Assembly (NCBI GenBank): GCA_965247095.1
Contig: OZ251997.1
Span: forward strand, 4,480,001 to 4,544,000
DNA: 64,000 bases
DNA from: Candidatus Multivorans sp.
GTDB taxonomy: Bacteria > Acidobacteriota > Thermoanaerobaculia > Multivoradales > Multivoraceae
Direction of reading: 5' to 3'
Shown: in pieces, positions 1 through 11,211 of the stretch
Layout: each line of letters opens with the position of its first letter
Position numbering within the stretch: the first letter of the stretch is position 1
The notes under the pieces: generated by a model
What the model was told of the DNA's origin: nothing
Databases searched by the model: none
The model's input: the letters and a program-made list of their open reading frames with translations, nothing else
Translations under genes and position numbers: made by a program

Positions 1-1232
1 AGTGTGTCGTTGTCCACCAACGTGAGAGGGCCAAGACCTGACCGCGCAAGGTTGTTCGCGACCTGCGAGCCAAGGGCACCCACCCCTACCACGAGCGTGC
101 GGACCTCCTTCAACACGAATCCGTTCATCGCCGCTGCCATGCGTCGGTCGAAGTGGAGAAGCACCGGTAGGAGGGACACTGGGCAGTTCTGGCCACGGTT
201 TGCGTTCGCTGGACCTTCCGCGGTCCCAATGATCGACGCGGCGTGTGAAACACCTTCGAACATCTGCGTCTCCCATGCGCCCACATCCTCTCCAACCTCA
301 AGCGGTGTCTTGGCAGTGATGAGTGCAAACATGTCCGCCGCCTCTGGGACCGTGTCGTGGGCGTGACGCTTCTTCGGAATCCAGAGGATCAGGGCGAGTC
401 GTGAGAAGAGCGCCTCAGAGTGCTCCGAAGCGTCCTTCCAAGCGCGCAGTCTTCGCCTCATCTCAGCCAGCAGGTCGAAATCGACGTCCTGCAACACAGA
501 CGCGACGTCGGCGAGAGTCCGTGGCTGACGGCGTATGACTCCATGCTCAGCAGGAGCGGTGCGGATTGTAAACGCTAGAGTTCTTGCAGTGTCGAGCTTC
601 GGTTGAGGATCCCCCGGCTCCCGCGCCGCCCTGGCGAGGTATGCGGTTGCGGCGGAGTCGGTGGCGCGAGTTACGGTCTCAATGCGTAGCGGTGCCGGAG
701 CATCGCGGAGAAAGATGTCACGGGGAACAACAAGCGGTACGAATGGTCCAAGAAAGAACGGCTCAAGGGCCTGATCTTCCCGATGAAGGCTGCCGTGCGC
801 CGCCCCTTCTAGCCAAGTTCGGAGGAGTTGTAGTAGCAGTCTGGTTGTCCATCGGCGTCGCAGTTCGTCGTATCGCATCTCAGTGATGCAAAGGCTGCGG
901 GGCACCTCCACCTCTCGCAGATTCTGGTGTGACAGGCGTGGGAACGAAGGGCGAAGGGCGAGGATTTCTGGGATCCTGTCGTCGGCGCGAGAGAAGACGA
1001 CAGCGATACGCTCCGACTCCTGAATGCCGTACCGCGATCCGCCTTGAGGAATCGAGACCTCGGTGTCAAGCACGACAACCTCGGTGTGCTCGCTGCTGCG
1101 ACATTCGACCAGCTCGGAGTAGTGATCAGCCCCCTTCACCAGGTGCTCGACGAGAGCCCGGGCCTTGGTGCATGTCAGGGAAGAGGTCGGGACGGGTACG
1201 CCGGGAGCTTTGAGCCAAGTCGCCCCCGTCAT
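1..1232 (-). CDS. Prokaryotic E2 (family A) + E1/ThiF fusion, Cap2-like (probable E2-E1-JAB of a 6A-MBL system); truncated by window edge
   Basis: Absent from the ORF track because its stop lies outside the window. Manual translation from ATG 1232 (ATGA overlap with the MBL stop) is open for about 410 codons. E2-A-like segment ALRPSFPRLSHQNL..PRSLCI..WT..LLRTWLEGAAHGSLHREDQALEPFF (Cys codon 888-890), then E1 Rossmann motif TLVVGVGALGSQVANNLARSGLGPLTLVDNDT (GxGxxG at 69-86). Confidence 0.88.
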   Translation of the reverse strand, partial: MTGATWLKAPGVPVPTSSLTCTKARALVEHLVKGADHYSELVECRSSEHTEVVVLDTEVSIPQGGSRYGIQESERIAVVFSRADDRIPEILALRPSFPRLSHQNLREVEVPRSLCITEMRYDELRRRWTTRLLLQLLRTWLEGAAHGSLHREDQALEPFFLGPFVPLVVPRDIFLRDAPAPLRIETVTRATDSAATAYLARAAREPGDPQPKLDTARTLAFTIRTAPAEHGVIRRQPRTLADVASVLQDVDFDLLAEMRRRLRAWKDASEHSEALFSRLALILWIPKKRHAHDTVPEAADMFALITAKTPLEVGEDVGAWETQMFEGVSHAASIIGTAEGPANANRGQNCPVSLLPVLLHFDRRMAAAMNGFVLKEVRTLVVGVGALGSQVANNLARSGLGPLTLVDNDT

Positions 1233-2339
1233 CCGTGCCGCTCGCCTCGACTGCTGGCGATCGCCACGCTGGAGGCGATTGTCGCCTTCACTAGCGTAGG
1301 ACCTTGGTCACCGATCGAGATCACAAGGGGTTGTGGTCTCTTGGCTCTCGGCGGGGGGGCATCGTGACGTGGAAGTCACCGGAGTGACTCAGCACAGAGC
1401 GATAGTAGGCTGCTGCCTGACGGTGCGGAGGCTGATCGCTGTCGTTGGCGCCACCCGGCTTCGGAATGGGCCGGGATGAAGAGACGAGAATCCCCGGCCG
1501 GACCTGTCGGTCCCCATAGAGCCACTCGATTTCCTCATCTTGGGGAGTCGTCTTGTTCAGACCGCGATCCGGCCCGAGCGACTTGTAACTGCAGTGGTGC
1601 GGTACCTTGAGTACGTGCCAGCGGAGGCGATCGTGATTCCCGTGCTTCTCAGTCGCCGCTACGATGTCTCGAAGCGCCTCGTAGTCGGCGTCGGCGAGAA
1701 GGAGAACGTCGGTGGTTCGTGCGGCGACTCTGAAGCGTGCCTGGCACATGAAGCTGTTGGTGTTCCGATCCTCCAAGTCCTCGTCGATCTTGAAGGCGAA
1801 CGGTGAGTGGACGAAGATCTCTAGCCCGTCATCTTCAAGCGCAAAGTTGGGGGCGGTGCATCCAGCGTCTGTAATGAGGTGCTTACGGCTCGCCCAACCG
1901 ATACCTTGTTCCTCGCAGTACTTCTCCAACAACTTCGGCCGGCCGAAGATGCGGATCCCCTTCCCTTCCTTGAAACGATGCCTTGCCTCCGCCCGAAGCA
2001 CCCTAGCTTCCGCGGCTGATCCTGCCCCGAGTTCCTCAAGAAGCAGGCCTGCTGGTGCCCAGAGCTCCTCAATCCGCACGCGGTCTTCATCCTGGTACTT
2101 GGCTGCGTGCTCCAGGTAGAAGAAATCTGAGGCGCCTTTTGTAGTGGTCTTCGTCTAGGTGTGTGAACGCCACGATGTCGAAGTGGGCTCTGCCGGCTTC
2201 GTCGAGGTCTTGCCTTAACAACGTGGGAAGATCGCAGCGCCGGTCGTTGTCGTCGTCCGGGTCGCGGGTGGCCGCGTAGTCGATCAGCAGTTTGCGGCCA
2301 TCCTGCAAGTCGATCCGGCAGCAGTCAGCGTTGCCTAGA

Positions 2340-4306
2340 CCGAAGTTCTGAGCTTCAAGTCGTGAAATCGCCTGTAGTGGTGGGCGTTTTCAGTTGTTCG
2401 GCGGTGTCTTGTACTGGGTACGTCGACTTCAGGGGCGGATGCCGAGTAGTTTGAAGGCTTCGTTCTGGAGTGGAGTGGGCCGTGCGAGGACGTCGGCGGT
2501 GGAGTCGGCCTTGCCGTGCATCCGCACGCGGTTTCGGGTCAGCGTGGCCAGGTCGGCGAGCAAGGTCTGGAAGCTGTGGACGGGGAGTCCGTCGGGGGTC
2601 CTCCGGGAGTTGGCCTTGGTCATTGCCTCGTGCGACCTTCGCGCGGGATCGACGGGCGACTCGCGTTGGTCGTCGCGGCGTTGGTCGTCGAAGAGGAGGG
2701 GCGCCAGGGTCCGGCGCATGTGCCACTCGACGTAGTAGGCGAGCATGCAGAGGAAGACGTGGGCGCGTACCCTCGAGGCTAGGCGATGGTGGACGGGGCG
2801 CACTTTGAGGTCGACGCTCTTGTAGGAGCGGAAGGCGCGTTCGACGCGGCTGAGGCTCTTGTAGGCGCGGACCGCATCGGCTGCCGGCAGTTCGTCTTCG
2901 GGGACGTTGGTGCGGATGACGTAGAAGCCGTCGAGAGCGGCTTCCTCGGCGATGCGCGCCTCGTTGCGGCGGTATTGGAAGCCGTCCTCTTCGATCTCGA
3001 CCTCGAAGTGCTTGCCGACCTTGTAGGCGCCCAGGGCGCGGTCCGCGCGCACGGCGATGGCGTCCTTGCCGCGCAGGGGGTTCTTCTTGCGCCGCGTCGC
3101 CGCAACGACGGCGTCGAGCTTGCGCTCGGTGGATTCGAGAAGCTCCTGGCGCTTGCGGCCGCGTTCCTCCGCCAGAAGCGGGTTCCGGCACACCACGAGG
3201 CGCTCCTTGGGGTACAGCTCCGGGACGCTGATCTCGGCCATCTTCCGCTGGTCGAAGAGCGACAGTTGCAGGTGGCCTTCCTGGGCCAGCGTCCTGATCG
3301 CCGGCGCGCGCAGGGCGCTGATCCAGGACAGGCCCGCGGGGTCGAGGTCCTCGCGGATGCGCGCGTCGGTGATCAGGCCCCGGTCTGAGACCATCACGAT
3401 CCTCTCCAGCGAGAAGCGGTCGCGGAGCTTCTGCACCTGGGCGTTCAGGGTCGTCGGATCGGCCGTGTTGCCCTCGAATACCTCGACCGCGACCGGGCAT
3501 CCGTCCCGGCTGCAGAGCAGGCCGAAGACGATCTGGACCTTGCCTCTCTTCTTGTCCCTGGAGTAGCCGTGCCTGGCCAGCGTGCACTTCCTGCCCTCAA
3601 AGTAGACCGAGGTCACGTCGTAAAGCACCAGCGAGCCGTCTTCCAGATGCCGCCGGGCAAGAGTCCGCTCGATGCGCGGCTGTCTTTCGAGCAGCCAGTC
3701 CATGGCGCCGTAGAGTTCGTCGGCCGAGGCCTCCTGCACGCCGAGTTCCTCGCCGAGGGTGTGGCTCATGGTCTCGCTCGCGAGTCCGCGGGCGGTGGCG
3801 AGCTTGGATCGCGGCTCGAGGATGCGGGCCGCGATCATGGCCAGCGCCAGTGCCCGTTCGCGCGAGGGCCGTCGGTCGAGGAGTCGTTCGATGCCGAGGC
3901 TTCGGGCCACGCCGAGGACGGCGGCGACATGGCCGTGCGGTCTGGCGCGCAGGATTTCGAAGGCGGCCTCGAGCGAAGGCAGGGCGACTCCTCCCTTGAG
4001 CAGGGTTCTGAGTCCTTCGACGAGTTGGTCGGGCCACTTGGAGAGGTTGGCGAGAGTGCGTTTCTTGACCTTTCCGTCCTGTCGGTAGGACTCTCTCAGC
4101 AGGACGGCGGGTGGTGAGTTTCGGTTGGGTACCCGTTCGATGTACATGGCTTCTCATTGTAGACGCAACCATTCAGAATGTCTACATGCCACGAGATCCT
4201 TACATGGCTACCAATGGCAGAAAACAGGGGCGGCCCAACACCCGAAAACCCAAGCACTGCAACGCCTCTCGACGACGAGGAGGCCCCAGGAGCCTCAGAA
4301 CTTCGG
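2340..4306 (-). mobile_element. IS1634-family insertion sequence (1967 bp)
   Basis: Perfect 13-bp TIRs CCGAAGTTCTGAG (2340-2352) and CTCAGAACTTCGG (4294-4306). 6-bp target duplication CCTAGA at 2334-2339 and 4307-4312. Encodes one DDE transposase. Confidence 0.95.
2429..4147 (-). CDS. IS1634-family DDE transposase
   Basis: 572 aa. N-term LLRESYRQDGKVKKRTLANLS; motifs LYDVTSVYFEG, GYSRD, FEGNTAD, VSDRG, VERAFR..K, RVRAHVFLCMLAY. Confidence 0.95.
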   Translation of the reverse strand: MYIERVPNRNSPPAVLLRESYRQDGKVKKRTLANLSKWPDQLVEGLRTLLKGGVALPSLEAAFEILRARPHGHVAAVLGVARSLGIERLLDRRPSRERALALAMIAARILEPRSKLATARGLASETMSHTLGEELGVQEASADELYGAMDWLLERQPRIERTLARRHLEDGSLVLYDVTSVYFEGRKCTLARHGYSRDKKRGKVQIVFGLLCSRDGCPVAVEVFEGNTADPTTLNAQVQKLRDRFSLERIVMVSDRGLITDARIREDLDPAGLSWISALRAPAIRTLAQEGHLQLSLFDQRKMAEISVPELYPKERLVVCRNPLLAEERGRKRQELLESTERKLDAVVAATRRKKNPLRGKDAIAVRADRALGAYKVGKHFEVEIEEDGFQYRRNEARIAEEAALDGFYVIRTNVPEDELPAADAVRAYKSLSRVERAFRSYKSVDLKVRPVHHRLASRVRAHVFLCMLAYYVEWHMRRTLAPLLFDDQRRDDQRESPVDPARRSHEAMTKANSRRTPDGLPVHSFQTLLADLATLTRNRVRMHGKADSTADVLARPTPLQNEAFKLLGIRP

Positions 4307-4345
4307 CCTAGAGGGAAAAGGGTCAGTTTGTGCAAGCTATCTCCT

Positions 4346-5017
4346 TCATGAGGGTATGGTGGGAGTCGCCTCAGCGTATGAGGTGAGTACCTCCTTGGTG
4401 TAGTGGCGGAAGAACTTGAGGTAGCGATAGAGCATTCCGATTGCGAGCACCGAGCCGGATGGCACCCAGATCAGGAGGTCGGGTGCGGATGAGGGGCATC
4501 TGTAGCGTCCCAGAACGAGCACGAGAGTGGCAAGAGCCGAGGCCATCGAGATATTGCGGCAGAATCCGTAGCGGGAGAGAAAGATATTCAGCCTCTCGAG
4601 CGTGGCGCGTTGGTGTTTCACGATCGTGTGGCAGTGGAGGAAGAGGGCCCTCCCGCCCGTGGGTACGCCGTGGCTCGCTGCGCGTGCGCGAATTCGGTCC
4701 TGGGTCTCTTCGGGTAGCGCCTTGAAGGTGCCTGGAAAAAGCTTGGCTTTCCAGCTCGGAGCTTGCGTAGCGAGCAGGTGCTCTTCGGGCGACCCAAGGA
4801 ACTTCCGCAGGAAGAGTCTCTCGACGACAGCGCTCGCAATGTGGGCCACGATGTGGCCGACAACGTAGGCGAGGAGGGTCCACAGGATCGCATGGACCGG
4901 ACTGATGGCATCGTTGAGGAGCCAGCCCCCGCTGCAGGAGAAATCGAGTGCCGCGAGCAGTAGGAATCCGGCCGCTAGGTAGCCGAAGAAGTCGTAGATG
5001 CTGAAGGGCGTTTTCAC
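4346..5017 (-). CDS. Uncharacterised 4-TM membrane protein in defence operon
   Basis: 223 aa, two N-terminal and two C-terminal hydrophobic helices. GTGA overlap with the PIN gene and 10 nt upstream of the MBL start. Confidence 0.75.
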   Translation of the reverse strand: MKTPFSIYDFFGYLAAGFLLLAALDFSCSGGWLLNDAISPVHAILWTLLAYVVGHIVAHIASAVVERLFLRKFLGSPEEHLLATQAPSWKAKLFPGTFKALPEETQDRIRARAASHGVPTGGRALFLHCHTIVKHQRATLERLNIFLSRYGFCRNISMASALATLVLVLGRYRCPSSAPDLLIWVPSGSVLAIGMLYRYLKFFRHYTKEVLTSYAEATPTIPS

Positions 5018-5562
5018 CGGTGGACCTCCTCAGTGGGGGCTTTGGCTGAAGAAGGTCGTAGCCTCTCGCGAAAGGAGCGGAATGGCATCTTGAAGCGCTT
5101 CGTTTCCAGCTTGCCCTTGGCGGCGTCGGCCTCGTCGACCGTGATGAGGTTCGCTTGGATCGCTCGGATGAAGAGGTCCACAGTTCCGATGATCCGGTCT
5201 TCGCCGATTCGGGCGATGGCCTCGCGTCGGAACCGCCCCTTCTCGTCCGAAGCCACTGTCCAGCCGTTCTTTTCAGCGAGCACCAGGCAAGCTGCCTCAC
5301 CGCGGCCAAGGCGAGCGAGGAGCTTCGCGAATGTTCGGATGTCGCCTGGGTGTGTGATCGAAGCGGCGTCCAGAGCTCCGGCGGCCAGTGCTTCGTCGAG
5401 TTCAGCCCGCTGGCCCTTCCGGCTGATTTCCTGTCGCACGTGATCCGGAACCACGAATTCGAGGTTCGGGAGGTCGGCGCACAGGCTGAGCCGTCCGACG
5501 TGCATGAAGTTGATGAGGACGTTCGCGTCGGTGACAACGACGTGGGTGGTCGGTGCGTTCAT
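5014..5562 (-). CDS. PIN-domain protein (DUF3368/COG2405-like)
   Basis: VVVTDANVLINF, VPDHVRQEI, LGRGEAACLVLA and VASDE PIN motifs. ATGA overlap with the upstream gene. Confidence 0.85.
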   Translation of the reverse strand: MNAPTTHVVVTDANVLINFMHVGRLSLCADLPNLEFVVPDHVRQEISRKGQRAELDEALAAGALDAASITHPGDIRTFAKLLARLGRGEAACLVLAEKNGWTVASDEKGRFRREAIARIGEDRIIGTVDLFIRAIQANLITVDEADAAKGKLETKRFKMPFRSFRERLRPSSAKAPTEEVHR

Positions 5563-6827
5563 CTGTCGTGCGGGCCACCATCCGGGCCGTTCGCCAAGCC
5601 GCTGTTCTCGAGTAGCGCGGGGACGCAGTCGACGGAGATATCCAGCATCGCTGCGAGCTCTTCGAGCTTGCCGCGTGAGATTTCTTCTCGGCGGTACGCC
5701 TCTAGAGCGAGTCCGAGAACCCGAAGCTGGAAGCGCCAGCGGAGTTCCACATGATCTGGCGTTGGCAGTCCTAGATTTCTGGCGAGTTGCTTGCCGCGCC
5801 CGAGACCGTCGAGTTCCTTCAGCTCATCGAATTCCGGTTCCGAGATCATCTTGAGGTTGCGGAGCCGATAGAGGGCGGCGATTCGGCTCACACTGAAGTG
5901 GTGGGCGAGCCGGACGACGTCATACAACTGAATCGCTTGGCTTCCGGGTGCACTGCGGGCTTCTACCTCGACGCTCTCGGCCTCCTCCAGGACGTCGCTG
6001 AAGACCTCGCTGCGGATTCGGCTCGGCCAGCCTTTTCCTAGACCGGCAACGAACTGCTTGACGCCGTTTTCTGGAAGCAGGAAGCCGGCGGCGAAGGCGT
6101 TGGCGCGTACCTCGATGAGGTTGCGACGCTCCGAAGAGCGGCTTACCAGGCCGAAGCGGTCTCGGTCGGCAAGGGCGTGGGCGAACTCATGGGCGAAGGA
6201 GAATCGGCGGCGCAAGACGTGCTGGTCCCGGTTCGCCACTACGAAGATCCCCACTCTTGGGTGGTTCAGAGTCAGTCCCGATACGTCGGCCGGTAGGTCG
6301 ACAACGCCGGTGCGAATGCCTTGGGCTTCGAGCAGTTCGGCCAAGTCGGGGAGGGGCGCGTCGCCAAGGCCGAGGCGGCGGCGTTCTTCAGTTGCGAGAC
6401 GCTCTCCCTGCTGGATTGCCTTCCAGGGGCTGGTGGGGGGTGGAAGAGGGTACGAGGTCGTGGCAGCAGTTGCGACATCGATGCTGAGTAGCTCTTCCAG
6501 AGAGGTAATCTCCCGGCCTAGGGCGACGCAATCCCGGAGGGCGCCGGCCACCGATGGCTCGGTCGCCACGTCCGGCTCCGCGCGAAAGAGAGCTGCGAGT
6601 GGGTCGCTGGCCGCGAACTCTTGGGCTACGAACTCGCGAATGTCCCGGCCGAGCATGTGCGCCAGCGAGTCGAGTTCAATGCTCGAGACCGCACGATTGC
6701 CCGCCTCGATCTGCGCAACAGTTGGCCGGGACACGCCCAGGTCTTCTGCCACCTGCGCCTGCGTTAGAGCGCACGCTTGTCGCGCACTTCGAATCCGACA
6801 GCCGAGTTCTGCTTGGGTGATGGGCAT
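5559..6827 (-). CDS. XRE-family HTH fused to ImmA/IrrE Zn metallopeptidase
   Basis: N-term LTQAQVAEDLGVSRPTVAQIEAG HTH; RRRFSFAHEFAH (HExxH); EVRANAFAAGFLLP; GGAGG RBS. Confidence 0.93.
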   Translation of the reverse strand: MPITQAELGCRIRSARQACALTQAQVAEDLGVSRPTVAQIEAGNRAVSSIELDSLAHMLGRDIREFVAQEFAASDPLAALFRAEPDVATEPSVAGALRDCVALGREITSLEELLSIDVATAATTSYPLPPPTSPWKAIQQGERLATEERRRLGLGDAPLPDLAELLEAQGIRTGVVDLPADVSGLTLNHPRVGIFVVANRDQHVLRRRFSFAHEFAHALADRDRFGLVSRSSERRNLIEVRANAFAAGFLLPENGVKQFVAGLGKGWPSRIRSEVFSDVLEEAESVEVEARSAPGSQAIQLYDVVRLAHHFSVSRIAALYRLRNLKMISEPEFDELKELDGLGRGKQLARNLGLPTPDHVELRWRFQLRVLGLALEAYRREEISRGKLEELAAMLDISVDCVPALLENSGLANGPDGGPHDR

Positions 6828-6874
6828 GATCTCTACCTCCGAGTCGCTTGGTGGCCCCGGTCGATGATGGCCGA

Positions 6875-6903
6875 AGGTTAGAAAATCGGACGCGACATGT
6901 CAA
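6875..6903 (-). promoter_or_regulatory. Sigma70-type promoter of the defence operon
   Basis: Minus strand reads TTGACA (6903-6898), 17-nt spacer, TAACCT (6880-6875), 47 nt before ATG 6827. Palindrome GACATGTC overlaps the -35 box. Confidence 0.75.
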
Positions 6904-6930
6904 TCCAGGGGAAAGGTGTTCTGCGTGAGG

Positions 6931-6954
6931 GCCGGAAGCGTTAACGGTTCCGGC
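6931..6954. promoter_or_regulatory. 24-bp imperfect palindrome, candidate operator or hairpin
   Basis: GCCGGAAgCGTTAACGgTTCCGGC, one mismatched pair, just upstream of the -35 box. Confidence 0.45.
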
Positions 6955-7055
6955 AGGCACACTAAGGGCTCGTCCGCATGGCCGACACGGGCAGGCGGGG
7001 GTCCTCGGTGTTGAGGCGTCGCTTCAACTCGCGACTTGCCGACGGCCGAGCTTCG

Positions 7056-7532
7056 TTAGCCCGCGGCCAGCCGCTTCTCGAAGCAGAGGCTGTGCGGATC
7101 GTAGGCGTACTCGTTGTAGCAGGGGATCTGGACGTAGCCGAAGGAGCGGTAGAGGTTGATCGCTGCCGGCTGCAGCTCGCCTGTCTCGAGGCGAAGCGAG
7201 CGGTAGCCGAAGGCTGCGGCGCGGGCTTCGAGTTCTTCGAGGATGCGCCGCCCCAGGGCCTGGCGACGGTACTCGGGGGCCACGTACATCCGCTTGATCT
7301 CGGCCTGGTCGGGGCCGAGGCGACGGAGCGCGCCGCATGCTATGGCCTCGCCGCCGGCAGTCAGGCCGAGGAGCAGGCAGCAGCCCGGCGCGTCCAGCTT
7401 GTCGGGCGCGACGCTGTAGATGCTGTCCGCGGGGTAGAGGTCTCCGAGTTCGCGGTCGAGCGCCTCGTGCAGGCGCACGAAGGCGGTACCTTTGGGGTCG
7501 CCCGGTTCGATCCGGACTTCGTCGGAGGTCAT
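7056..7532 (-). CDS. GNAT acetyltransferase
   Basis: From ATG 7532 (MTSDEV, GAGG RBS): ACGALRR..AEIKRMYVAPEYRRQALGR..LETGELQPAAINLYRSFGY. Confidence 0.9.
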   Translation of the reverse strand: MTSDEVRIEPGDPKGTAFVRLHEALDRELGDLYPADSIYSVAPDKLDAPGCCLLLGLTAGGEAIACGALRRLGPDQAEIKRMYVAPEYRRQALGRRILEELEARAAAFGYRSLRLETGELQPAAINLYRSFGYVQIPCYNEYAYDPHSLCFEKRLAAG

Positions 7533-7566
7533 CTGGTCCTCGGTGCGGTGGGTTGGCGAGCCGCCG

Positions 7567-9303
7567 TCACGGATGGAATTCCGGGGCTTCCCGCAGCATC
7601 TGGTCGCGCAGGGTGCGCTTGTGGATCTTCTCGGTGGCGCCGCGCGGCAACTGCTCGTCCTGGAGCCAGACGTAGCGCGGCACCTTGAAGCGCGCCAGAT
7701 GCTCGCCGACGTGAGCCCGCACATCGGCCGCGTCGAGATCGGCGCCGTCCTTGGGTACCACGACCACCGCCAGCTCCTCGCCCAGCCGGTCGTCGGGGAC
7801 GCCGAAGGCCGCGGCCTCGTAGACGGCGGGGTGCTGGTAGACGACGCGCTCGATCTCGGCGCAGTAGATGTTCTCGCCGCCGCGCAGCACCATGTCCTTC
7901 TTGCGGTCGCGGATGTAGAGGAAGCCGTCCTCGTCGATCTCGGCGATGTCGCCGGTTCTGAGCCAGCCGTCCTGGATCGTCTCCGCGGTCGCCTCCGGAC
8001 TGTTCCAGTAGCCGCGGATGTTCATCGACGACTTCATGATCAGCTCGCCCTGTTCGCCGGACGGCAGTTCGTTGCCGTCGTCGTCGATGATCTTCAGTTC
8101 GACGATCGGGCACGGCTTGCCGCAACTGTCCGGCTTCTCGACCAGGCCCTCGTCCGTGTTGCCGGCGCCGCCGGCGTTCGTCTCGGTCATTCCCCAGCCG
8201 AAGGACCAGTGCTTGTCGGGCATCAGAACCTGCAGGCGATCCACCATGCCGCCGGGGATCGGCGCGCCGCCGCCGGACACCGCGGCCAGGCTGCGCAGGT
8301 CGCGATCCTTGAGCGAAGGCGACTGCAGCATCTCCCAGGTCATCGTCGGCACGCCGTTGAAGGACGTGACCCGCTCCCGCTCGATCAGCTCCAGGCCGAG
8401 TTCGGGATTCCACTTGTACATCATCACGATCTTGCGACCGGCGCCGAAGGAGGCGAGCAGGCCGGCGTGGCTGCCGCTGACGTGGAAGAGCGGCAGGGGC
8501 ATCAGGATCGAGGGCTGGAACTCGGGGTTCTCCTCCGGTTCCTCGAGCAGGCCCATGGCGATCCGCTGCGCGCCGTAGAAGCCCCAACTGCCGATGCCGC
8601 TGAGCACGCCGCGATGGGTCGACACGGCGCCCTTGGGGAAGCCGGTGGTGCCGGACGTGAAGAGGATCGTCACGTCGTCGTGGGCGCCGAGTTCGATGTC
8701 GGGCATAGGTTGGCCGGCTGCCTCGCGCCACACCGCGCCGAAATCGTCGACGCCGTCGGGCGGGTCGCCGTCCCAGCGAACGCCGATGCTCACAACACCG
8801 AGGTCGGGTAGGCGGCTGGCCACCCGTTCGTAGCGCTGCTGGTCGAAGAAGGCGAGCTTGGCGCCGGAGTCCTTGAAGCCGTACTCCAGTTCCTCCCCGG
8901 ACCACCAGCCATTGAGCGACACGGAGATCGCGCCGGACGACGTGATCGCCATGAACGCGATCACCCATTCCGGGTAGTTCCGCATCCCGATCGCGACCCG
9001 GTCGCCCTTCTTGACGCCGTAGCGGTGGACCAACTGATGCGCGATCGCCGCGGCGCGGTCGTACGCCTCGGCGTAGGTCAGGCGGGTGTCCTGGAAGACG
9101 AGGAAGTCCTTGTCGCCGTGGTCCTGCAACGCTTGGTCGTAGATGTCGCGCAGCGTCGCCGGAAGATTCTTGAAGACCTTGTACTCGACCCCGCGCACGG
9201 TTTCCGTGACCAGCTCGTAGTCGGCGCCCGGGCCGGTCAGGTGGGCGACCGACTCGTCGTAGGTCATCTGGCCGTGGATCGGCTCGGCGTTCATTTGCTT
9301 CAT
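7567..9303 (-). CDS. Long-chain fatty-acid-CoA ligase (ANL family)
   Basis: FTSGTTGFPKG, GWGMTE, WLRTGD, DRKKDMVLRGGENIY. Confidence 0.93.
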   Translation of the reverse strand: MKQMNAEPIHGQMTYDESVAHLTGPGADYELVTETVRGVEYKVFKNLPATLRDIYDQALQDHGDKDFLVFQDTRLTYAEAYDRAAAIAHQLVHRYGVKKGDRVAIGMRNYPEWVIAFMAITSSGAISVSLNGWWSGEELEYGFKDSGAKLAFFDQQRYERVASRLPDLGVVSIGVRWDGDPPDGVDDFGAVWREAAGQPMPDIELGAHDDVTILFTSGTTGFPKGAVSTHRGVLSGIGSWGFYGAQRIAMGLLEEPEENPEFQPSILMPLPLFHVSGSHAGLLASFGAGRKIVMMYKWNPELGLELIERERVTSFNGVPTMTWEMLQSPSLKDRDLRSLAAVSGGGAPIPGGMVDRLQVLMPDKHWSFGWGMTETNAGGAGNTDEGLVEKPDSCGKPCPIVELKIIDDDGNELPSGEQGELIMKSSMNIRGYWNSPEATAETIQDGWLRTGDIAEIDEDGFLYIRDRKKDMVLRGGENIYCAEIERVVYQHPAVYEAAAFGVPDDRLGEELAVVVVPKDGADLDAADVRAHVGEHLARFKVPRYVWLQDEQLPRGATEKIHKRTLRDQMLREAPEFHP

Positions 9304-10241
9304 GCCATGGCCGCCAGTTCTTCTTCGTAGTTGGCGAAGGAGTGCTTCAGCGTCGCATGGTTCAAGATCATCTCGGCTATGGGTTCCTTCGACTCCGCGT
9401 CGAGGAAGGTGGTCCTGACCCAGTACGACTCGGTGCGCCGGCTCTCGCTCAGGGCGACGATCTGACGCTCAAGCAGGTAGTCGTGGTCCACGAACAGGGG
9501 CCCGCGGATCATCCGGATCTGCTGGCCCGCGAACAGGCCCAGGGCCGGTCCGCGGATGCGGAAGCCGGCCTTGCGGTTCGAGTAGCCGCCGAGCACGCTG
9601 ATCATCTCCAGCGGGATGACCGCGCGGCCCCAGGGCGATGAGCCGCCCTCCTTCTCGGTGTACCAGGGCGACGGCGCCGTGATCGCGTCGAGTTTCTGAT
9701 TCAGGCTGAAGGGATAGAGGCTGCCCATGTGCTGGTCGAAGTCCATCCTCACCTCTTCGAGGCCCCTGCCCTTCATCCCGACCTTGAGATCGCGCATGAT
9801 GACGAGGGGCCCGGGTGGCCGCAGACGGGCGATCCGGGTAGCGATCTCGGACGACTCGACGTCACCGCGGATCGAGGCGGTGCCGATCAACACCTCGGTG
9901 CCGTCGGCCTTCTCGGCGCGGATACGGACCTGGGTCTGGCCATTGGCCGGGCGCTCGACGAGGGCGCGCACCTGCTCGCCCTCGACCACCATGTTCCGGT
10001 AGTGGGCGCTCAGGCAGCCGGTCTCGAACCACTCCTGCCCCCACAGGTCGTGGAGCAGGGGCACGAATTGGCTGAAGTGGGTCGGACCCTCGATCGGGCC
10101 GCCGGCCTGGAACCCCATCTTTTCCGCCATCGAGTCGTCGTGGATGGACACGTGCCCGCCGTACTCCTGCTCGGCGAGCATCTGCTTCGGGGACCGTAGC
10201 GGTCCACGGATGTAGGTCGGCGTGTCGAAAGCCTCGGCCAT
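9300..10241 (-). CDS. Putative double hotdog-fold (MaoC-like) protein
   Basis: 313 aa; SIHDDSMAEKMGF..GGPIEGPTH resembles the MaoC hydratase motif. Overlaps and is coupled to the CoA ligase. Confidence 0.55.
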   Translation of the reverse strand: MAEAFDTPTYIRGPLRSPKQMLAEQEYGGHVSIHDDSMAEKMGFQAGGPIEGPTHFSQFVPLLHDLWGQEWFETGCLSAHYRNMVVEGEQVRALVERPANGQTQVRIRAEKADGTEVLIGTASIRGDVESSEIATRIARLRPPGPLVIMRDLKVGMKGRGLEEVRMDFDQHMGSLYPFSLNQKLDAITAPSPWYTEKEGGSSPWGRAVIPLEMISVLGGYSNRKAGFRIRGPALGLFAGQQIRMIRGPLFVDHDYLLERQIVALSESRRTESYWVRTTFLDAESKEPIAEMILNHATLKHSFANYEEELAAMA

Positions 10242-10338
10242 TCGGGTCTCCTGGTCGGGAAGGGGCCAAGTCTAGGAGTTTGCGCCGCAGGTGCAAACTC
10301 TTCCCCCGGCCTTCCGGCACGTCGTGAGATGATGAGGC

Positions 10339-11211
10339 GTGGTCAAGATACCCGGCGAGGATGTCGTCATCCGGAGCGTCGAGTCGGCGCTGGAGGGCAG
10401 GCCGGCGGCGGTCGAGAGCTGTCCGAACTGCGGCTCGGAGCGCGTGGACAACTACTGCGCCGACTGCGGCCAGCGCGCCGGCGATCTGCATGCGACGGTC
10501 GGTCAGTTCGTCCGCGACGCGTTGGACGGCCTGCTCTCGTTCGACTCCCGCGTCTGGCGCACGCTGATCGCTCTGGTTCTGCGTCCGGGCTTTCTGACCG
10601 TCGAACACTGGCGGGGTCGGCGCGCCCGCTACGTCGCGCCGCTGCGGTTGTACCTGTTCGTGAGTTTCTTCACCTTCCTTCTGCTCGCGCTCCTCGCTCG
10701 GGGCAACGTCGTCGACACGACGGGGACGAACCCGGACGCCACCATTCAAATCGGATCTTCGGAGTCGGACGACGGGGACGAAGAAGCCGGGTGGTTCATC
10801 GATCGCGTGTTGCGGCCGATCGTCGAGGACTCGGAGGGCTTCGAGGCGCTCTTCGTACGGCGACTCCCCTGGATGTTCTTTGTCCTCGTGCCGCTGTTCG
10901 CCATGTTCCTCCGACTGCTGTACCGCCGCCGAGAGCGCTTCTACGTGCCGCACCTCGTCTTCGCACTTCACTTTCACGGCGCGGCGTTCCTGCTGACTAG
11001 CGCAGGAAGAGCAGGGACTCTCCTCTGGGAACCGCTGTCCGGCTTCGCCTTCCTCGCCGTCCTCGTCGCGCTCTTCCTTTCGCTTCGACGGGCGTACGAA
11101 GAAGGATGGTTCAGGACCATCGTCAAGGAGGTCTGCCTTCTCTTCGTTCACGGGTTCAGCATCGTGATCGCCATGGCGGTCCTGATGATCGTCACCAGCT
11201 TGATGCTGTAG
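10339..11211 (+). CDS. DUF3667-type membrane protein
   Basis: CPNCG..NYCADCGQ zinc ribbon; RPGFLT..GRRARYVAPLRLYLF; multiple TMs. Confidence 0.85.
   Translation: MVKIPGEDVVIRSVESALEGRPAAVESCPNCGSERVDNYCADCGQRAGDLHATVGQFVRDALDGLLSFDSRVWRTLIALVLRPGFLTVEHWRGRRARYVAPLRLYLFVSFFTFLLLALLARGNVVDTTGTNPDATIQIGSSESDDGDEEAGWFIDRVLRPIVEDSEGFEALFVRRLPWMFFVLVPLFAMFLRLLYRRRERFYVPHLVFALHFHGAAFLLTSAGRAGTLLWEPLSGFAFLAVLVALFLSLRRAYEEGWFRTIVKEVCLLFVHGFSIVIAMAVLMIVTSLML

Follow-up and report, generated by a model that had tools for sequence, protein, structure and literature searches.

A 64,000-nucleotide (nt) stretch of the genome of "Candidatus Multivorans" sp. (assembly GCA_965247095.1, contig OZ251997.1), referred to below as the window, corresponds to bases 4,480,001 to 4,544,000 of a single 4.62-Mb contig, and its first 7 kb carry a five-gene array built around a 6A-MBL anti-phage locus. 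All five genes lie on the minus strand and encode, in order of transcription, a fusion of an XRE-type helix-turn-helix (HTH) domain with an IrrE-type peptidase (XRE-IrrE), a PIN-like protein, a transmembrane (TM) protein, fragments of a metallo-β-lactamase-fold (MBL) enzyme, and a single-chain E2-E1-JAB enzyme. The genes and the control elements in front of them are as follows, in window positions, as are all coordinates below:

5559-6827, minus strand: XRE-IrrE, 422 amino acids (aa)
5014-5562, minus strand: PIN-like gene, 182 aa
4346-5017, minus strand: membrane protein with four TM helices (4-TM), 223 aa
1229-4335, minus strand: MBL pseudogene, four pieces interrupted by an insertion sequence (IS)
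1-1232, minus strand: first 410 codons of the E2-E1-JAB gene, with an open reading frame (ORF) at 3-1232 that is open at the window edge
6874-6902, minus strand: candidate promoter TTGACA-17-TAACCT, with a GTCCGAT element in the spacer and GGAGG 8 nt before the XRE-IrrE ATG
6931-6954, no strand: near-perfect palindrome of 24 nt, 29 nt upstream of the -35 hexamer

The array is tightly packed. The XRE-IrrE and PIN genes share an ATGA at 5559-5562, the PIN and TM genes share a GTGA at 5014-5017, and a gap of 10 nt (4336-4345) separates the TM gene from the MBL gene, which starts with TTG at 4335. The MBL and E2-E1-JAB genes share an ATGA at 1229-1232, an overlap that is valid only in the homologue-supported frame of the MBL gene. 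An earlier model-made reading of the bare letters (the original prediction) had placed these four junctions and the candidate promoter exactly, and had remarked that the E2-E1 ORF was missing from the ORF list; its absence from the default list is due solely to its running past the window edge.

In the full contig, the E2-E1-JAB gene extends 1,114 nt past the window start and encodes a Cap2-Cap3 fusion of 782 aa with the Pfam domains Prok-E2_A (residues 51 to 176), ThiF (374 to 491), and Prok-JAB (625 to 742). The protein scores 590.2 bits against NF058523 ("anti-phage 6A-MBL system cap2_3 protein"; cut-off, 320), and the largest MBL fragment alone reaches 246 bits against NF058524 ("6A-MBL system MBL-fold protein"; cut-off, 220), both being curated NCBIfam equivalog models for 6A-MBL. 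A word-indexed search returned 734 relatives of E2-E1-JAB at an E value of ≤1e-5 among 8,000 scored candidates, and 119 of the best 120 of these relatives have all three domains, the other being a 590-aa form without the E2 domain. C115 of the E2 domain (codon at window 888-890), C557 of the E1 domain, and E641, H705, H707, and D719 of the JAB/JAMM center are invariant in 20 of 20 aligned homologues, and the metal motifs H-x-D-x-D-H and HHC are still present in the MBL fragments. By these profile matches and conserved residues, the locus is assigned to the 6A-MBL anti-phage system. The same assignment and the same E2 cysteine codon had been proposed from the window, with the JAB domain and the E1 cysteine left to be sought to its left, and extension of the contig leftwards brought both to light. 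An operon of this type, 6a, with a triple-module protein beside a specialized MBL protein, was described by Iyer, Burroughs, and Aravind (2006; PMC1779556), and a 2026 review and a 2025 preprint credit van den Berg et al. (2024) with the 6A-MBL name and its anti-phage activity.

The MBL gene itself is broken. Against the window, a homologue of 371 aa gives four alignment pieces in two frames, with the IS in between, and the remains are arranged as follows:

4307-4335, minus strand: MBL pseudogene piece 1, the TTG start and about the first 10 codons; homologue residues 3-12 align at 4329-4300 (alignment piece 1)
2340-4306, minus strand: IS of the IS1634 family, boundaries good to about 5 bp, with the transposase ORF at 2429-4147
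2141-2339, minus strand: MBL pseudogene piece 2, with the H-x-D-x-D-H metal motif, 73 bits against NF058524; homologue residues 7-74 align at 2344-2141 (alignment piece 2)
2137-2140, minus strand: frameshift 1, a run of four A here and of three in three other organisms
1360-2136, minus strand: MBL pseudogene piece 3, the main body, 246 bits against NF058524 and 52% identical to the homologue of locus L019; homologue residues 76-329 align at 2136-1360 in the other frame (alignment piece 3)
1353-1359, minus strand: frameshift 2, a C7 run, with one base more and one substitution in three other organisms
1229-1351, minus strand: MBL pseudogene piece 4, the C-terminal tail, which has R-x-G at its end and a stop that overlaps the next start; homologue residues 332-371 align at 1351-1232, in the first frame again (alignment piece 4)

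The IS lands at MBL codon 10 and is bounded by 13-nt terminal inverted repeats and by a 6-bp direct repeat (CCTAGA at 2334-2339 and 4307-4312). Its transposase matches NF033559 at 351 bits (cut-off, 100) and Pfam DDE_Tnp_1, and the genome holds six copies at 99 to 100% identity, five at about 80%, and two partial copies at 66%. In the other copies, the match extends by 5 bp over the adjoining CTAGA, a hint of a CTAG-type target preference. At least the IS hit is recent, because the catalytic motifs of the MBL enzyme are still readable and this copy of the IS does not differ from its siblings.

Contigs from public read sets bear on whether these lesions are real. The contigs of run X1, which has the same organism label, show 0 differences over 307-2364 and reproduce both frameshifts and both IS junctions. 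All three lesions are absent from contigs of runs X5, X7, and X8, which come from three other organism labels and studies: position 2332 is joined to 4306, leaving the IS site empty, one base fewer is found at 2137, and one more is found behind 1355. One X5 contig (6,693 nt) covers 1-2332 plus 4306-7100, with the five genes contiguous. It could be argued that the lesions are assembly errors or a reversible homopolymer switch and that the system still works in this strain, since both frameshifts, +1 and -1, lie in homopolymer runs (A4 and C7) and the E2-E1-JAB gene is fully intact. This is hardly credible, however, as the X1 read assembly carries both indels and both IS junctions unchanged, slippage cannot reverse an IS insertion, and frameshift 2 is not a simple change of run length because a substitution relative to the relatives is found at the same site. 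The two frameshifts were also considered as a compensating pair, and this was rejected: the stretch between them is in the homologue-supported frame, and the other frame stops at 2087. To judge from the lesions, the MBL gene is dead and the system is inactive in this genome, with the E2-E1-JAB gene and the three upstream genes intact. The original prediction had spoken of a reconstructed MBL; the gene is indeed present in fragments, but the break is more thorough than that wording implied, comprising an IS and two frameshifts, all of them found again in X1.

Two further observations concern the same gene in relatives. The X7 contig (organism C) passes directly from 2032 to 2066, an in-frame loss of 33 bases inside the MBL gene (window 2033-2065). 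In an 11.5-kb contig of a close relative, 98% identical, the MBL protein P0121 begins with residues that correspond to a shifted frame of about 2010-2045; judged from the protein, this is most simply explained by the loss of 5 bases there, and the MBL gene would then have been broken independently once more.

The wider setting of the system was surveyed in 110 related loci (74 from genomes and 36 from metagenomes) that are 26 to 45% identical to the query, the DNA context of the closest clade, with E2-E1-JAB proteins 62 to 65% identical to that of the window, lying outside this set. A metagenome scan with the single protein found no relative, and a scan with an alignment gave the 36 metagenomic loci, none of them closer than 42% identity. 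The 863 ORFs flanking the enzyme within 5 kb were clustered, and Pfam was run on one representative per cluster. The MBL gene is directly upstream of E2-E1-JAB on the same strand in 102 of the 110 loci; the remaining eight are contig ends (L015, L037, L050, and L065) or truncated remnants (L033, L044, L056, and L073).

Most of these operons carry a third gene, for either a four-helix membrane protein or a patatin. The TM family (200 to 260 aa, four helices) is found in 38 loci, in 24 of them as the immediate neighbor on the same strand and in 10 with overlapping start and stop; in L005 and L060 it lies upstream of the MBL gene, as in the window. A patatin-like phospholipase is found in 24 loci, directly downstream of E2-E1-JAB in 20 (for example, L101 6540-7739), the position that the membrane protein holds in other loci. 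One or the other occurs in 50 of the 68 loci for which both flanks are available, and both occur together only in L075. No description of these companions was found in the literature searched, which excluded the primary 6A-MBL paper and bioRxiv supplements, and they may already be known. M78 peptidases lie near 14 of the 110 loci (directly upstream on the same strand in four, on the opposite strand in the rest), and a small HTH_3 protein lies near 8. Homologues of XRE-IrrE that are 51% identical stand directly upstream of the MBL gene in two loci of Latescibacterota, with no PIN gene there, and PIN homologues were found in 0 of the 110 loci at an E value of ≤1e-3. Linkage of genes like the three upstream ones of the window to MBL and E2-E1-JAB, for which the original prediction had proposed a survey, was thus found for the TM family, for M78 peptidases in a minority of loci, and, in two loci, for a close XRE-IrrE, but not for PIN.

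As a side observation, genes of type I restriction-modification (HsdM in eight loci and HsdS in seven) and of SNF2/NOV_C helicases (in six) lie near some of the 6A-MBL loci (for example, L118 5356-6876 and L055 3863-5056), which is consistent with defense islands.

The MBL enzyme has a conserved tail. The ORF ends in glycine in 66 of the 102 cases, and R-x-G, usually as P-R-A-G, lies within the last 15 residues in 99, with 1 to 7 further residues in about 40. The nine closest full-length homologues that were fetched (60 to 81% identity) all have R-x-G, terminal in eight and followed by 6 residues in one. As a control, paralogous MBL-like neighbors have unrelated ends and are glycine terminal in 1 of 25 cases. 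In the homologue-supported frame, the window tail reads E-R-H-G; its departure from P-R-A-G was considered as a sign of decay and rejected, as the whole clade has such a tail. An AlphaFold2 model of one MBL homologue, made with an alignment of 40 of the 102 sequences, has a predicted local distance difference test (pLDDT) score of 90.5, with the last 17 residues (355 to 371) disordered. The best structural match of the model is the MBL domain of ComEC (9ic4; E value, 3e-15), followed by phosphorylcholine esterase, and the best PDB sequence match of the enzyme is the same ComEC domain. In type II CBASS (systems of anti-phage signaling that are based on cyclic oligonucleotides), the CD-NTase is conjugated through a terminal glycine or alanine (Jenson et al., 2023; PMC10097602), and in 6A-MBL, according to Ye et al., the MBL protein itself would be the conjugated moiety, with targets given as not known. 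A disordered tail with a terminal glycine fits a role of the MBL enzyme as that moiety, as far as sequence and models can indicate.

The membrane protein of the window belongs to the family found beside 6A-MBL elsewhere, as the original prediction had supposed in counting it with the system. It matches three members directly (46%, 43%, and 28% identity), and a hidden Markov model made from 33 of the 38 members, with the 5 closest left out, finds it at an E value of 3.2e-11 in a 1,211-sequence database. Its AlphaFold2 model (pLDDT, 91.1) is all helical, with four long helices and a small helical insert. Fold searches with the model returned no convincing PDB relative (best Foldseek E value, 0.32; best VIA-align Z score, 7.0, among helical bundles), and an Atlas search returned unnamed clusters only. 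R154, in a Y-G-F-x-R-N motif, is the sole invariant residue of the family, which has no conserved lysine. In a sample of 401 genomes from the phylum, the family occurs in 11, among which only that of the window also has a cap2_3 protein above the cut-off. A complex prediction for an MBL homologue (alignment of 40 sequences) with its TM neighbor (alignment of 29) scored 0.00, which gives no verdict either way.

A second MBL-like family, distant from the 6A-MBL enzyme, of 270 to 370 aa and with no conserved tail, is present in 27 of the 110 loci (for example, L019 12167-12985 and L087 12176-13051), where it usually follows the TM protein. It also pairs with the TM protein in genomes without E2-E1-JAB (L171 to L176), and a member is a neighbor in five of the nine TM loci examined among those of the 11 genomes of the phylum sample, the window and G083 loci being left out. 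The recurrent unit thus seems to be a membrane protein with an MBL-fold enzyme, with or without the ubiquitin-like enzyme.

The first gene of the array encodes an HTH_3 domain (Pfam E value, 1.3e-12) and a Peptidase_M78 domain (1.2e-12) with HExxH at residues 213 to 217. Across six homologues, 110 of its 422 residues are invariant, including H213, E214, and H217. PADLOC models match it as RmrA (1.8e-29), capP (1.1e-16), and capH (1.6e-3), and NCBIfam gives a weak match to the spr1629 repressor/antitoxin family. From these matches, the protein is classed as a regulator like the CapH-CapP fusions, the type that had been named in the original prediction, and its homologues head the operons of the two Latescibacterota 6A-MBL loci. 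The second protein has no Pfam match at an E value of ≤0.01 and matches PADLOC family PDC-S70 at 5.5e-11; by Atlas features, 28 of its 30 nearest named clusters are PIN/DUF3368. D12, E45, and D106 are near-invariant in nine homologues, and a PDB sequence search gave only chance-level matches to ribosomal eS25.

These two genes travel together. Of 400 other genomes of the phylum, 10 contain PIN homologues, and the three closest (52%, 47%, and 43% identity) have an XRE-IrrE gene (44 to 59%) directly upstream on the same strand; in one of these loci, the two genes share 4 nt, and a convergent gene comes next. A cap2_3 protein above the cut-off was found in 0 of 5 XRE-IrrE-PIN genomes tested. XRE-IrrE plus PIN is accordingly read, from gene order, as an autonomous two-gene cassette, a self-contained unit, because the pair occurs, once bounded by a convergent gene, in genomes without cap2_3. 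A single type of regulator can thus be found heading PIN alone, 6A-MBL alone, or both together. In another genome of the same genus (G027, locus L135), the pair lies among large uncharacterized genes (1167-4634 and 6599-10910), one of which has an ATPase-like N terminus; this may be another defense context.

The self-contained nature of the pair raises the question of whether it has anything to do with the genes behind it. In RosmerTA, the RmrA antitoxin is an XRE protein plus Zn-peptidase. The first two genes of the window could be a toxin-antitoxin or stand-alone defense pair of the RosmerTA or Xre-COG2856 kind, in which the fused protein neutralizes or represses a PIN toxin and which stands before the TM and 6A-MBL genes by chance, with no meaningful regulation of them. 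RmrA is the best PADLOC match of the regulator, the PIN-like protein matches a candidate family (PDC-S70), the weak spr1629 match points the same way, the pair is conserved and self-contained elsewhere, and in G036, a genome of the same genus, the regulator survives the deletion of the rest. However, the 51%-identical XRE-IrrE proteins head MBL and E2-E1-JAB directly, without PIN, in two loci, no promoter-like site lies between PIN and the downstream genes, and no RmrT model matches the PIN or TM protein at an E value of ≤0.01. Such an unconnected pair is less probable than modules under a common promoter, though far from negligible.

Support for that promoter comes from comparison rather than from consensus. 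The TTGACA-17-TAACCT element at 6902-6874 was missed by a consensus scan, its -10 hexamer having only 3 of 6 matches; on this strand, the scan called one site against 0.7 expected, and the site is the IS's own promoter. TTGAC recurs upstream of seven of seven XRE-IrrE homologues compared, with a GTTCGAWT-like word 7 to 8 nt later, within the spacer. This word, represented in the window by GTCCGAT, is a candidate operator half-site; it lies between the -35 and -10 elements in each of the seven promoters, which come from different phyla (window 6880-6896 and, upstream of XRE-IrrE, L142, L134, L135, L006, L011, and L125). That both elements are present in all seven speaks most strongly for a real promoter, which is probably autoregulated. 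Of the 24-nt palindrome farther upstream, the G036 remnant keeps a part, and nothing like it occurs at the more distant XRE-IrrE loci; it may serve as an operator or else as a terminator for the GNAT gene upstream.

A stronger form of linkage had been favored in the original prediction, namely, one integrated, extended 6A-MBL system with built-in damage sensing, in which PIN and the 4-TM protein serve E2-E1-JAB as effectors or as conjugation targets. Overlaps or a 10-nt gap do join the five genes behind a single candidate promoter, another organism has the whole array without interruption in a 6,693-nt contig, and the TM family stands beside 6A-MBL in 38 of 110 loci. PIN, in contrast, is absent from all 110 other 6A-MBL loci and occurs with XRE-IrrE in genomes without 6A-MBL, so that a place for it within 6A-MBL is not supported. 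For the PIN and TM proteins as conjugation targets there is no indication: the TM family is invariant only at one arginine and has no conserved lysine, and the published model (Ye et al.) conjugates the MBL protein itself. Such an integrated system is distinctly unlikely, and the upstream genes are better described, on their distribution, as modular than as a new integrated design. In sum, the family, the JAB domain, the regulator type, and the TM protein as a companion stand from that prediction, the PIN linkage and the conjugation targets do not, and the copy at hand is inactive.

The preferred reading, held at a probability of about 0.75, is that known modules have been combined at this locus behind a single promoter and that the system is inactive here. 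The first module would be a CapH-CapP-type fused regulator translationally coupled to a PIN-like nuclease; the second, a four-helix membrane protein whose family is a habitual companion of MBL-fold enzymes; and the third, two-gene 6A-MBL, a ComEC-like MBL-fold enzyme with a glycine tail plus the single-chain E2-E1-JAB. Several points weigh against this reading. Co-transcription is deduced only from the overlaps and the absence of other promoter-like sites, and among the public read sets there is no RNA run containing this stretch. CapH and CapP are described by Lau et al. (2022) as divergent two-gene units, whereas here they would be fused and codirectional, and the regulator scores higher as an RmrA antitoxin (1.8e-29) than as capP (1.1e-16). 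The TM protein has no structural relative, and its family is not specific to 6A-MBL, as the 10 other genomes of the phylum that contain it lack cap2_3 over the cut-off. The 110 loci include near-duplicates, and counts among them do not represent independent events. X1 is possibly the genome's own source sample and so not fully independent.

How the intact form would work can be suggested by analogy with type II CBASS and CapH/CapP. The promoter would stay repressed by the regulator as long as neither DNA damage nor single-stranded DNA has activated the regulator's peptidase. Adenylation of the terminal glycine of the MBL enzyme would fall to the E1 domain, and the enzyme would pass to E1 Cys557, to E2 Cys115, and on to a target, while the JAB domain would trim the tails and take conjugates apart again. 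The role of a membrane-directed partner or effector would belong to the membrane protein or, in other loci, to the patatin. A more speculative scheme, put forward tentatively and rather improbable as a whole, takes the four-helix membrane protein and the ComEC-like MBL hydrolase, a membrane-associated nuclease or phosphodiesterase that also exists alone with its partner, as the functional core. In that scheme, 6A-MBL would add E2-E1-JAB, which switches the hydrolase by conjugation of its glycine tail, with patatin as an alternative partner, and the window operon would add PIN under one damage-sensing CapH-CapP fusion. One switch would then arm two different effectors, the MBL/membrane unit and an unrelated PIN nuclease.

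The composite array occupies an accessory islet of roughly 7 kb (about 9 kb if the IS is counted), which separates a gluconate-dehydrogenase subunit gene from a GNAT gene. The flanks hold ordinary metabolic genes, for gluconate 2-dehydrogenase subunit 3 and a GMC oxidoreductase on the left and for GNAT and an acyl-CoA synthetase on the right. Of 29 loci from other species of the genus, 25 have the GNAT gene next to the dehydrogenase subunit gene. E2-E1-JAB was found in 0 of 60 relatives (36 of them of the same genus), which gave only weak ThiF-type matches, and cap2_3 exceeds the cut-off in only 3 of 401 sampled genomes of the phylum. G036 retains at the same site the XRE-IrrE gene, at 96.6% nucleotide identity, and about 43 first codons of PIN and then runs into the dehydrogenase gene, having lost everything from 5433 leftwards to about 1.2 kb beyond the window start. 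The islet is rare, horizontally acquired, and undergoing loss in different ways. In G118, another genome of the phylum (contig 13, 11760-14926), the cap2_3 match falls into two pieces about 1.1 kb apart, and this copy may be interrupted too.

The lineage thus offers a natural decay series of a costly defense locus, with intact, in-frame-deleted, frameshifted, IS-hit, and largely deleted forms, in which the MBL enzyme is the part struck repeatedly and E2-E1-JAB stays whole. The interest of the locus may be general rather than local and lie in the alternative between membrane protein and patatin, in the stand-alone pairs of membrane protein and MBL-fold enzyme, and in the repeated loss of the MBL gene.

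Among known systems, the closest is 6A-MBL itself, with which the locus shares an MBL gene directly upstream of a single-chain E2-E1-JAB, matches above the cut-offs of both equivalog models, conserved catalytic cysteines and JAMM residues, and an MBL tail that ends in glycine. The window locus differs in having an MBL pseudogene, a membrane protein gene upstream instead of downstream, and a fused regulator and PIN-like gene in the same direction behind the same candidate promoter, and its clade has an R-x-G tail without the usual P-R-A-G.

In type II CBASS, the conjugated enzyme is a nucleotide cyclase: Ledvina and colleagues reportedly found in 2023 that Cap2 and Cap3 act on the C terminus of the CD-NTase. 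The same action, with Cap2 as the E2-E1 enzyme and Cap3 as the JAB peptidase, is described by Jenson et al. (2023; PMC10097602). Both systems set a non-ubiquitin enzyme with a conserved C-terminal glycine beside an E2-E1 enzyme and a JAB peptidase, and the patatin or transmembrane alternatives for the third gene resemble the effector choices of CBASS. In 6A-MBL, however, the conjugated enzyme would be a ComEC-like MBL-fold hydrolase rather than a nucleotide cyclase, E2-E1 and JAB form one polypeptide, and the system is not known to use a second messenger.

The likeness to RosmerTA lies in the regulator, for which RmrA is the best PADLOC match, and in its pairing with a putative toxic partner; unlike in RosmerTA, this partner is a PIN-like protein, and the RmrT models match neither it nor the TM protein. 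The likeness to CapH/CapP is that a defense operon is headed by an XRE HTH domain and an M78/IrrE peptidase bearing HExxH; the difference is that in the window the HTH domain, at the N terminus, is fused to the peptidase and that the gene comes first and is codirectional with the operon. In the preprint of Lau et al. (2022; 10.1101/2022.04.27.489752), one 6a system is listed with CapP, CapH, and a pair of hypothetical proteins at its flanks; CapH-CapP fusions are listed for 15 CBASS systems and for one DISARM system, in which a vapC-like gene lies next to the fusion. Both the link of CapH/CapP to 6a and the fusion beside a vapC-like gene were thus already published, and the array is less novel than had been claimed. 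What the window contains is a system already known and named, accompanied by accessory modules of known kinds; its codirectional arrangement is somewhat unusual, and it is preserved here as a pseudogene-bearing remnant.

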